This document shows, in pieces, positions 53,299 to 54,636 of a stretch of DNA of 64,000 nucleotides; within the stretch, counting starts at the first letter, position 1, and every line of letters starts with the position of its first letter. Under the pieces are notes generated by a model. It ran no database searches. It was not told the origin of the DNA and saw only the letters and a program-made list of their open reading frames with translations. Source of the stretch: Burkholderiaceae bacterium (GTDB taxonomy: Bacteria > Pseudomonadota > Gammaproteobacteria > Burkholderiales > Burkholderiaceae_C); NCBI GenBank assembly GCA_016790575.1, contig JAEUOU010000006.1, forward strand, positions 56,737-120,736, written 5' to 3'. The translations under genes were made by a program, and so were the position numbers.

Positions 53299-54636
53299 AT
53301 GAAAAATATAGCTATAAAGCACCTTTTTGCACTGGGTATCGGCCTCTTTTGCATGAAATCGGCGCTGGCGGTGCTGCCCGTGCAGCAGTGGACGCAGGCC
53401 AGCGGCGCGCAGGTGTTTCTGGTCGAAAGTCCGGCCATTCCGATGCTGGATGTGCAGATTGATTTCGATGCCGGCAGCCGGCGCGACCCGGCCGCCCAGG
53501 CCGGGCTGGCCAGCGCGATGGCGGCGCTGATGTCGCGCGGGATTGCGGCGTCCGGGGCCGGGCCGGCGTTCGACGAAAACCAGCTGGCCGAGGCCTGGAC
53601 CGATCTGGGCGCACAGTTCGGCGCCAGCGCCGGGTCGGACCGGCTCGGCTTTTCGCTGCGGACGCTGACCCGGCCGGACCTGCTCGATCGTGCCGTGAGC
53701 CTGGCCGCGCGCCAGATGGCGCAGCCGGCGTTCCCGTCCGACATCTGGCAGCGCGAGCGCGAGCGCCTGGGGGCGGATCTGCGCGAGGCCCGCACCCGTC
53801 CGGCCCATGTGGCCGGGCTTGCCTTTGCACGGGCGGTGTATGGCGACCATCCTTACGGGTACGAAGTCACCGAGGCCACACTGGCGCGCATCAGCGTCGA
53901 CGACCTGCGGGCCAGCCACCGGCGTGACCTGCGTGCCTGTGGGGCACGGGTGAGCCTGGTCGGGGCGGTCTCCCGGCAACAGGCGGACGCCCTGGTGCGT
54001 CGTCTCCTGGCCCATCTGCCCGCCACCGGCTGCGGCGGCCTGCCGGCCGTGCCGGAGGTGAGTGCCTTGGTGGCGCCCCAGACGCTGGCGCTGCCCTTCG
54101 AGTCGGCACAGGCCCATGTGCTGATCGGGCAACCCGGCATGCGCCGGGCCGATCCGGACTTTTTCGCGCTGTTTGTCGGCAACCACATCCTGGGCGGTGG
54201 CGGTTTTGTCTCGCGCCTGACCGAAGAGGTGCGCGAGCGTCGCGGCCTGAGCTACAGCGTCTACAGCTATTTCGCGCCGGGGCGACACGCCGGCGCGTTC
54301 ACCATCGGCCTGCAGACGCGGCCCGACCAGGCACCGCTGGCGGTGCAGGTCTCGCAGGATGTCTTGCGCCGCTTTGTCGCCGAGGGACCGACCGAGGCCG
54401 AACTGCAGGCGGCCAAAGACAACCTGATCGGTGGCTTTGCGCTGCGTGTGGACAGCAACCGCAAGTTGCTGGACAACGTCGCCAATATCGCCTGGAACGG
54501 CCTGCCGCTGGACTACCTGGACCGCTGGACGGATCGGGTCGGTGCGCTGACAACGGCGGACATCCGCACGGCGTTTGCCCGCATCATCCAGCCCGAGAGG
54601 CTGGTCACCGTGGTGGTGGGTGGCGCGGCGCGCTGA
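53299..54636 (+). CDS. M16-family peptidase-like protein (no HxxEH motif seen; probable non-catalytic partner)
   Basis: M16 C-terminal-type body (RGLSYSVYSYF...). The N-terminal MKNIAIKHLFALGIGLFCMKSALA is encoded by repeat copy D, so the start and signal peptide need checking. Confidence 0.8.
   Translation: MKNIAIKHLFALGIGLFCMKSALAVLPVQQWTQASGAQVFLVESPAIPMLDVQIDFDAGSRRDPAAQAGLASAMAALMSRGIAASGAGPAFDENQLAEAWTDLGAQFGASAGSDRLGFSLRTLTRPDLLDRAVSLAARQMAQPAFPSDIWQRERERLGADLREARTRPAHVAGLAFARAVYGDHPYGYEVTEATLARISVDDLRASHRRDLRACGARVSLVGAVSRQQADALVRRLLAHLPATGCGGLPAVPEVSALVAPQTLALPFESAQAHVLIGQPGMRRADPDFFALFVGNHILGGGGFVSRLTEEVRERRGLSYSVYSYFAPGRHAGAFTIGLQTRPDQAPLAVQVSQDVLRRFVAEGPTEAELQAAKDNLIGGFALRVDSNRKLLDNVANIAWNGLPLDYLDRWTDRVGALTTADIRTAFARIIQPERLVTVVVGGAAR
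53306..53360 (+). repeat. Dispersed repeat family, copy D (inside the 5' end of the second M16 CDS)
   Basis: ATATAGCTATAAAGCACCTTTTTGCACTGGGTATCGGCCTCTTTTGCATGAAATC aligns with copies A, B, C and E. Confidence 0.8.

Follow-up and report, generated by a model that had tools for sequence, protein, structure and literature searches.

A dispersed repeat that encodes most of the predicted signal peptide of an inactive M16 peptidase subunit

Whether a short repeat scattered in hundreds of copies over a bacterial genome can also serve as the export signal of a conserved enzyme, or whether its presence in a predicted N-terminus merely betrays a misplaced start codon, is the question raised by two adjoining M16 peptidase genes in a stretch of 64,000 nucleotides (nt) from a Burkholderiaceae bacterium (assembly GCA_016790575.1, contig JAEUOU010000006.1, positions 56,737 to 120,736 of the forward strand), hereafter called the window and numbered from its first letter. 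The upstream gene encodes an active zinc-peptidase subunit and the downstream gene its inactive partner (M16B), and the first codons of the latter coincide with one copy, copy D, of a dispersed repeat with a unit of 63 nt. A sequence-only reading of the window had left two options, namely that a repeat insertion was exapted as a secretion signal or that the start was annotated in the wrong place and translation in fact begins further downstream. According to the analysis reported here, translation of the inactive subunit very probably starts at ATG 53299, and the repeat-encoded leader very probably represents an old overlap between gene and repeat, at which repeat DNA has been held or refreshed.

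The leader of the inactive subunit and its start codon

Positions 53299-53370 translate as MKNIAIKHLFALGIGLFCMKSALA, which has the tripartite structure of a Sec-type signal peptide, much as the sequence-only reading had supposed: an n-region, MKNIAIK, with Lys2 and Lys7 and no acidic residue; an h-region, HLFALGIGLFCM, that includes 11 residues without charge (LFALGIGLFCM); and a c-region, KSALA, leading to a predicted cleavage site at A-L-A before VLPVQQW, with small residues at -3 and -1. The description of this leader as almost entirely repeat-encoded holds at codon level, as copy D supplies codons 1-20 of the 24, the start ATG 53299 being the ATG within the 5' palindrome of the repeat, and S-A-L-A (53359-53370) lies outside it. 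The reported exchange of acidic residues for I-K-H is likewise borne out, with the consensus Glu/Lys-Asn-Asp appearing as Ile-Lys-His, and is accompanied by a further change of Arg to Leu; the frames quoted for comparison from copy A (IAECDLFTLGTGRFCLKS) and copy E (IAESDLFTLGIARFRCKP) were read correctly.

The TGA at 53283-53285 is the stop codon of the active M16 gene, which agrees with the earlier placement of its end at 53285, and ATG 53299 opens a frame of 445 codons 13 bases further on. GAGGGA, which overlaps this stop, is a putative ribosome-binding site at a plausible spacing, and Curvibacter orthologues display the same TGAGGA...ATG arrangement at the M16 junction. The product of the downstream gene matches Pfam Peptidase_M16_C (4.7e-31) and, weakly, Peptidase_M16, and aligns from residue 27 with PDB 3AMJ_B, described as 'zinc peptidase inactive subunit' (E=3.8e-123). 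The pair has the composition of an M16B heterodimer, in which a subunit of this fold without HxxEH is encoded beside the gene of an active HxxEH (here HVLEH) subunit, and the active subunit carries an ordinary signal peptide of its own, MKRHPLLAPLMLGFVLTVSAPLAAWA.

The boundary between leader and mature protein extends well beyond this genome. At all 80 Comamonadaceae loci and all 29 loci from other Burkholderiales families, the leader ends in AxA directly before the mature motif (L/I)P(I/V)QHW, and this genome reads SALA and then VLPVQQW exactly at the corresponding boundary. The repeat-encoded leader does not exceed in length the ordinary leaders of the other families. These alignments point to export of the inactive subunit and to cleavage at the predicted site.

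In the mechanism that we propose, translation would begin at the ATG in the repeat palindrome, the next 19 codons would be read from the remainder of the repeat, in the single sense frame that is open, and four further codons (SALA) would complete a leader for Sec and signal peptidase I. The leader would be cut before VLPVQQW, and the inactive subunit would join its active partner, itself equipped with a leader, in the periplasm.

Distribution of the overlap and of the repeat

Cross-genome comparisons were made between genera, the nearest genome being about 71% identical in DNA, and across this distance the overlap of leader and repeat is shared by much of the family. When the N-termini of the orthologues are aligned at the DNA level, 53 of the 80 Comamonadaceae leaders prove repeat-like, with ATA/GTA-GCx in frame (ATA in 47, ATA-GCT in 43), and these are rare codons in the present genome, where ATA accounts for 2.0% of Ile codons and GCT for 4.9% of Ala codons. 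In most orthologues the mature motif is preceded by M(I/N)TIKNIAARALL...LF..NSAWA, encoded by DNA that is visibly repeat-like (ACTATCAAAAATATAGCTGC...TTTTT), and the c-region beyond the repeat is alike among them (NSAWA, KSALA). None of the 29 loci from other Burkholderiales families has a leader with repeat-like DNA. On a quick, unrooted tree of the M16 genes, repeat-like leaders are scattered over the entire tree, and GC-rich ordinary leaders, found in the Curvibacter gracilis group, Limnohabitans, Variovorax and some Ramlibacter, are nested among them. This distribution suggests that the overlap is old, that it was probably present in the common ancestor of the sampled Comamonadaceae genera, and that several lineages have since lost it by decay to a GC-rich leader.

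The DNA of each leader follows the repeat version of its own genome. A 79-nt segment of leader DNA from the present genome has 31 BLAST matches in that genome (the segment itself plus 30 more); eight further Comamonadaceae genomes yield no match, even at their M16 junctions. For the leader of Acidovorax sp. M2, own-genome matches number at least 40 (126 candidates), and it can be aligned to the unit TTGCTATCAAAAATATAGCTGCCAGCGCTT-loop-AAGCGCTGGAGGCCATTTTT of Acidovorax. The Polaromonas leader likewise has at least 40 own-genome matches (418 candidates), with 83-98% identity among the matches listed, and at most one elsewhere; the OS-4 leader has 23 own-genome matches versus 0-8 in other genomes. 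Between genera the unit agrees at its ends (CTAT-N7-ATAGC and GGCC.TTTTT) and varies in its middle.

The same behaviour is found in two copies inside genes. A repeat-like segment stands at the same position in nine of nine genomes, both in GlmU (AMEVEA...) and in the CCA-adding enzyme (INSIA...); in GlmU it has equal length in seven of the nine, and its middle part matches the version of each genome. Similarity within genomes exceeds that between genomes for GlmU and the M16 leader, for the CCA enzyme and the M16 leader, and for GlmU and the CCA enzyme (each permutation p<=1e-4, nine genomes), so that coding copies at shared positions can be said to change in step within a genome. In a Polaromonas metagenome-assembled genome (G066), the in-gene copies of both enzymes (GlmU, L117; CCA enzyme, L126) are near-consensus and at least 10 residues longer than in other genera, the CCA copy containing a partial tandem duplicate (AINTPA...AVNTPI), and these longer copies hint at renewal by replacement or slippage. 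Intergenic copies around the M16 locus keep no conserved positions between genera.

The extent of the family in the present genome was determined with an nhmmer profile built from four window copies and iterated over the whole assembly (3.45 Mb, 39 contigs, 64.7% GC). It returns 432-467 copies, about one per 8 kb, with the consensus GCTATGAAATTCATAGCAAAAAATGACCTTTTTACGCTGGGTATGGGCCGTTTTTGCCTGAAA and the 5' palindrome GCTATGAAATTCATAGC. Within the window, a repeat search groups 53292-53358 with 26510-26576, 59304-59370 and an inverted copy at 40383-40447, and nhmmer places six copies, all of them in the high-GC part (Table 1). The possibility that the M16 leader is the master of all copies in this genome was considered and rejected, since copy D departs from the consensus at precisely those positions where a leader tolerates no charge, and the consensus frame, MKFIAKNDLFTLGMGRFCLK, is not a leader.

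Table 1. Genes, leader elements and repeat copies in the window
Feature	Positions	Strand	Basis and details
Active M16 zinc-peptidase subunit gene	51834..53285	+	Open reading frame, 483 residues, HVLEH motif; Pfam Peptidase_M16 and Peptidase_M16_C
Shine-Dalgarno-like GAGGGA	53284..53289	+	Read from sequence; overlaps the upstream stop, about 9-11 nt 5' of ATG 53299
Inactive M16B partner subunit gene (P0001)	53299..54636	+	445 residues; no HxxEH
Predicted 24-residue Sec-type signal peptide MKNIAIKHLFALGIGLFCMKSALA	53299..53370	+	Translation; cleavage site common to orthologues in and outside Comamonadaceae
Repeat copy D	53298..53358	+	nhmmer E=7.6e-11, model positions 3-63 of 63
Intergenic repeat copy A, frame reads IAECDLFTLGTGRFCL	26514..26576	+	nhmmer E=4.8e-15
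Leader copy of DUF547 protein	40386..40447	-	nhmmer; same frame as copy D; ATG 40465; leader MNTRRNAIFYIAALHLFTLGTPGFA, then QNSG
Repeat copy at gene 3' end	46084..46140	-	nhmmer E=1.4e-9
Repeat copy E, directly after a stop codon, frame reads IAESDLFTLGIARFRC	59308..59370	+	nhmmer E=9.7e-16
Diverged repeat copy	61073..61131	+	nhmmer E=1.3e-7

For counts by location, copies were placed on a gene map from our own codon-usage caller (2,543 cores, 78% coding). By this approximate classification, 233 of 438 anchored copies are intergenic, and those in gene cores number 37/1/3 in sense frames 0/1/2 and 33/8/6 in the antisense frames. Fifteen copies lie in frame 0 at the 5' end of a gene. Nine of these look like true leaders, eight of the nine with His for the consensus Asp, and in six the real start lies past the repeat. 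The codon CAC (His) in place of GAC (Asp) occurs in 10 of the 15 N-terminal in-frame copies versus 26 of the 233 intergenic ones (Fisher p=2e-6) and in none of the 37 internal ones, and charged residues are fewer in the 15 (p=1e-4). Seven of the nine proteins with repeat leaders match families of exported proteins (the M16 partner, a DUF547 protein, a SCO1/SenC lipoprotein, MltB (SLT_2), DsbD, an M14 carboxypeptidase and a polysaccharide deacetylase); the remaining two, both small, have no Pfam match, and one of them carries a lipoprotein-type leader. The DUF547 gene has its ATG 1 nt past the stop of the upstream gene, and its overlap looks younger than that of M16, because four orthologues have unrelated, Arg-rich leaders and one, in genome G015, a repeat-like leader.

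Elsewhere in the genome, roughly 85-90 copies lie in gene cores and are strongly confined to stop-free frames. Examples, named from their flanking translations, are GlmU (C14:119237-119298), the CCA enzyme (C22:148133-148191), MiaA (C11:191021-191077), UvrA (C22:214832-214878), an HscA-like protein (C12:302496-302545), an acyl-CoA dehydrogenase (C36:66987-67036) and the N-terminus of CysN (C11:8721-8768), and a hydrophilic variant of the IANNDHSTLGNGQKDSK type recurs inside soluble proteins. A further 25 sense copies overlap the 3' ends of gene cores in frame 2. In that frame the consensus offers a TGA (model positions 24-26), and several genes may end on a stop codon supplied by the repeat.

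Extragenic copies are concentrated 3' of genes, with 45% of them in convergent gaps, which make up 16% of all gaps, and 7.6% in divergent gaps. For the repeat as a whole, the density of copies per 5 kb is 0.23-0.33 at GC below 63% versus 0.66-1.0 at GC of 63% or more, and the orientation of copies shows only a weak bias with respect to GC skew (p=0.018). Positions 1-26000 of the window, a low-GC region taken by the sequence-only reading for a polysaccharide island, contain no copy, which fits their genome-wide scarcity at low GC. Rfam, scanned against the entire window at gathering thresholds, yielded no family. The repeat can fold as the 5' palindrome followed by a hairpin of A-run, stem and T-run, with a modest z of -1.4 to -2.4 against shuffles. 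A role as a transcription terminator was rejected, as the fold beats shuffles by a modest margin only, the T-run does not adjoin the stem, and copies within operons and genes speak against strong termination.

Alternative readings and maintenance of the overlap

Translation from ATG 53299 has to be weighed against a start at GTG 53371 or ATG 53353, both in frame, which would leave the repeat as an untranslated spacer and the segment without a part in export. Such a reading draws on the intergenic location of about half of all copies and on the six in-frame copies mentioned above that precede the true start of their gene. A start at 53371, however, yields MLPVQQW... and no leader, and one at 53353 yields MKSALAVLP... 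and no hydrophobic core, whereas the partner subunit has a leader of its own, the frame is open, the charges of the consensus are replaced, and the layout of ATG plus leader is kept in at least 50 orthologues. Because all orthologues, in and outside the family, have an AxA leader exactly there, a start after 53370 would deprive this one subunit of the leader that its predicted export throughout the orthologues requires. On these alignments the annotated start does not appear to be mis-annotated, and the downstream start that had been offered as an option must be considered very unlikely. Even less credible, to the point of being negligible, is the idea that the leader resembles the repeat by composition only and that copy D does not belong to the family. 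Hydrophobic and AT-enriched leaders are common enough, yet the DNA match extends over 61 nt at E=7.6e-11 and includes the nearly invariant boxes AGC, AC and TGGGTA, the codons used include the rare ATA, GCT, CTT, TTT and AAA, and leaders outside the family are without such DNA.

A more serious alternative, though still an unlikely one, is that an element resembling a miniature inverted-repeat transposable element (MITE) or a Rickettsia palindromic element (RPE) entered the junction of the two M16 genes in recent times, separately in every lineage, and replaced the previous leader, so that the copies are young. It would account for the far better match of leaders to repeats of their own genome than to orthologous leaders, for intergenic copies near M16 that are not positionally conserved between genera, and for the fresh look of the Polaromonas GlmU and CCA copies, with their added length and partial tandem duplicate. 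Against it, the same junction would have to be hit at codon level in dozens of lineages, the reading frame and the c-region outside the repeat (NSAWA, KSALA) are common to the orthologues, the GlmU and CCA copies keep identical positions in all nine genomes with equal length of the GlmU copy in seven, and the M16 leader is no longer than ordinary ones. Target-site duplications and terminal inverted repeats were not seen, although no systematic search was made for them. Of the proposed exaptation of a repeat insertion, the part that survives is therefore the use of the repeat as a leader; the insertion event does not, given an overlap that is family-wide and a leader that has gained no length. 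The lack of extra length, the presence of the junction in most genera and the tracking of each genome's own version argue together for an old overlap maintained at the DNA level rather than for a lineage-specific insertion.

Several points weigh against this interpretation. The h-region of the M16B leader starts with His and holds two Gly, and the quality of the leader was assessed by eye (charge, hydrophobic run, AxA). The ancestry of the overlap is deduced from its distribution on a quick unrooted tree, on which repeated replacement at the same site would look alike. The copy class counts are approximate because the gene map behind them comes from a crude codon-usage caller.

If the overlap is indeed old, the repeat DNA itself would be kept or renewed at the M16 site, as is suggested by the persistence of rare codons (ATA-GCT) and by the resemblance of the leader to the repeat version of its own genome. 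Selection at the protein level would then only filter the variants that are tolerated, such as the exchange of the consensus Glu/Lys-Asn-Asp for Ile-Lys-His and of Arg for Leu, which gives the hydrophobic core. Two candidate causes of homogenisation may be put forward. One is gene conversion among copies or a self-targeted replacement, to which the long Polaromonas copies point; the other is a drive resembling that of DNA uptake sequences. In a tentative and rather doubtful form of the latter, the repeat would be a self-recognition uptake signal of naturally transformable Comamonadaceae with genus-specific dialects, and biased uptake together with recombination would pull copies towards the dialect, which would explain both the rare codons and the tracking of the own-genome version in the M16 leader. 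The repeat length of 63 nt and the density of one per 8 kb fit known uptake sequences poorly.

The maintained overlap, if correctly interpreted, would mean that signal peptides, which tolerate sequence change better than any other part of an exported protein, can be made to bear a second message at the DNA level over very long periods, and that in the Comamonadaceae M16 leader this message apparently outranks codon choice. Should gene conversion or self-targeted replacement be the cause, the copies at shared positions would constitute an unusually clear case of concerted evolution within coding sequence. On the practical level, gene callers averse to AT-rich starts with rare codons may misplace such starts, and repeat masking would conceal genuine leaders.

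Comparison with known systems

The repeat family itself has almost certainly been glimpsed before. Tong et al. (2017; PMC5217627) listed as potential novel motifs ATAGCT(N)22CAAAAG in Polaromonas naphthalenivorans CJ2 and GCTTAT(N)5AAGCG in Acidovorax ebreus, with 125 copies in CJ2, 18 of them in genes and many near 3' ends or between convergent genes. These motif pairs almost certainly belong to the same family as the repeat described here; their account (PMC5217627) does not touch on the frame in which the motifs are read, on signal peptides, on conservation between genera or on joint change of copies within a genome. It was the only work on this repeat that our literature search found: a full-text search with Acidovorax repeat strings gave chance matches only, and a keyword search (Comamonadaceae, REP, signal peptide) gave nothing on this repeat. 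A paper on the Arabidopsis receptor MIK2 describes SCOOP-like peptide motifs in Comamonadaceae proteins (PMC8448819).

The closest parallel for a repeat-encoded leader is the Yersinia MITE RU-2/YPAL, which makes up a segment of the signal peptide predicted for YPO1552 (Delihas, 2007, as reviewed in PMC2229807). In both cases, going by the review, a gene is joined in frame to a small dispersed repeat that can be translated, and the repeat provides part of a predicted signal peptide; the Yersinia case, as summarised there, concerns one hypothetical protein in two very close species and was read as the creation of a new gene. Unlike it, the present overlap involves a conserved enzyme subunit exported throughout Burkholderiales, extends over the family, recurs in nine proteins of one genome and tracks the repeat version of each genome.

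RPEs measure about 150 bp and are regarded as selfish DNA that has been inserted (Ogata et al., 2000, as summarised in PMC10969869 and PMC2229807). With RPEs, as these summaries portray them, the present repeat shares a palindromic, dispersed character and an in-frame location inside many unrelated housekeeping genes (here 37 copies in the favoured sense frame versus 1 and 3 in the others). In contrast to RPEs, the unit is 63 nt long, the in-gene copies examined hold their positions across genera and change in step, and the M16 leader has no net gain in length. As for the hallmarks of insertion, the M16 leader and the GlmU and CCA copies keep their positions across genera instead of being present in one relative and absent from another, extra length is not found at the M16 leader or in seven of the nine GlmU segments, and no target-site duplications were noticed, although no systematic search was made.

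Repetitive extragenic palindromic (REP) sequences and their REPIN arrangements are short palindromic repeats mobilised by REP-associated tyrosine transposases (RAYTs). Like them, the present repeat is short, palindromic, mostly extragenic and enriched after convergent genes, and a RAYT-like gene is at hand: a single-copy Y1-transposase gene (Y1_Tnp) occurs in seven of seven genomes tested, the homologue in the present genome lying at C5:135278-135967. This gene and its counterparts (loci L108-L110) are flanked by different inverted repeats, GGGTCAGATTCCAATTA and TAATTGGAATCTGACCCCAATTA, and not by the 63-nt unit; a copy of the unit stands just 3' of the RAYT-like gene in three other genomes, though not in this one. 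The RAYT-like protein carries the HUH motif NHFHLL and in this genome is 39% identical to its Polaromonas counterpart. We know of no REP sequence that acts as a leader or keeps its position inside genes across genera.

Uptake signal sequences (USS) of Pasteurellaceae are comparable to the DNA uptake sequences (DUS) of Neisseriaceae. The latter occur in lineage 'dialects' (Frye et al., 2013; PMC3630211). The likeness to these systems is broad: the repeat is a strongly over-represented motif with lineage variants, located after genes and in frame inside them, rarer in low-GC and probably foreign DNA, and with little strand bias. It differs from DUS and USS, which have cores of 9-12 nt and occur about once per kb, in its length of 63 nt, its several conserved boxes, its hairpin potential and its density, about one copy in 8 kb. 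Natural transformation is described for Acidovorax and Verminephrobacter, with an uptake that apparently discriminates between species, and no uptake sequence has been reported for either (PMC4212676); a repeat with genus-specific versions would be an obvious candidate for that role.

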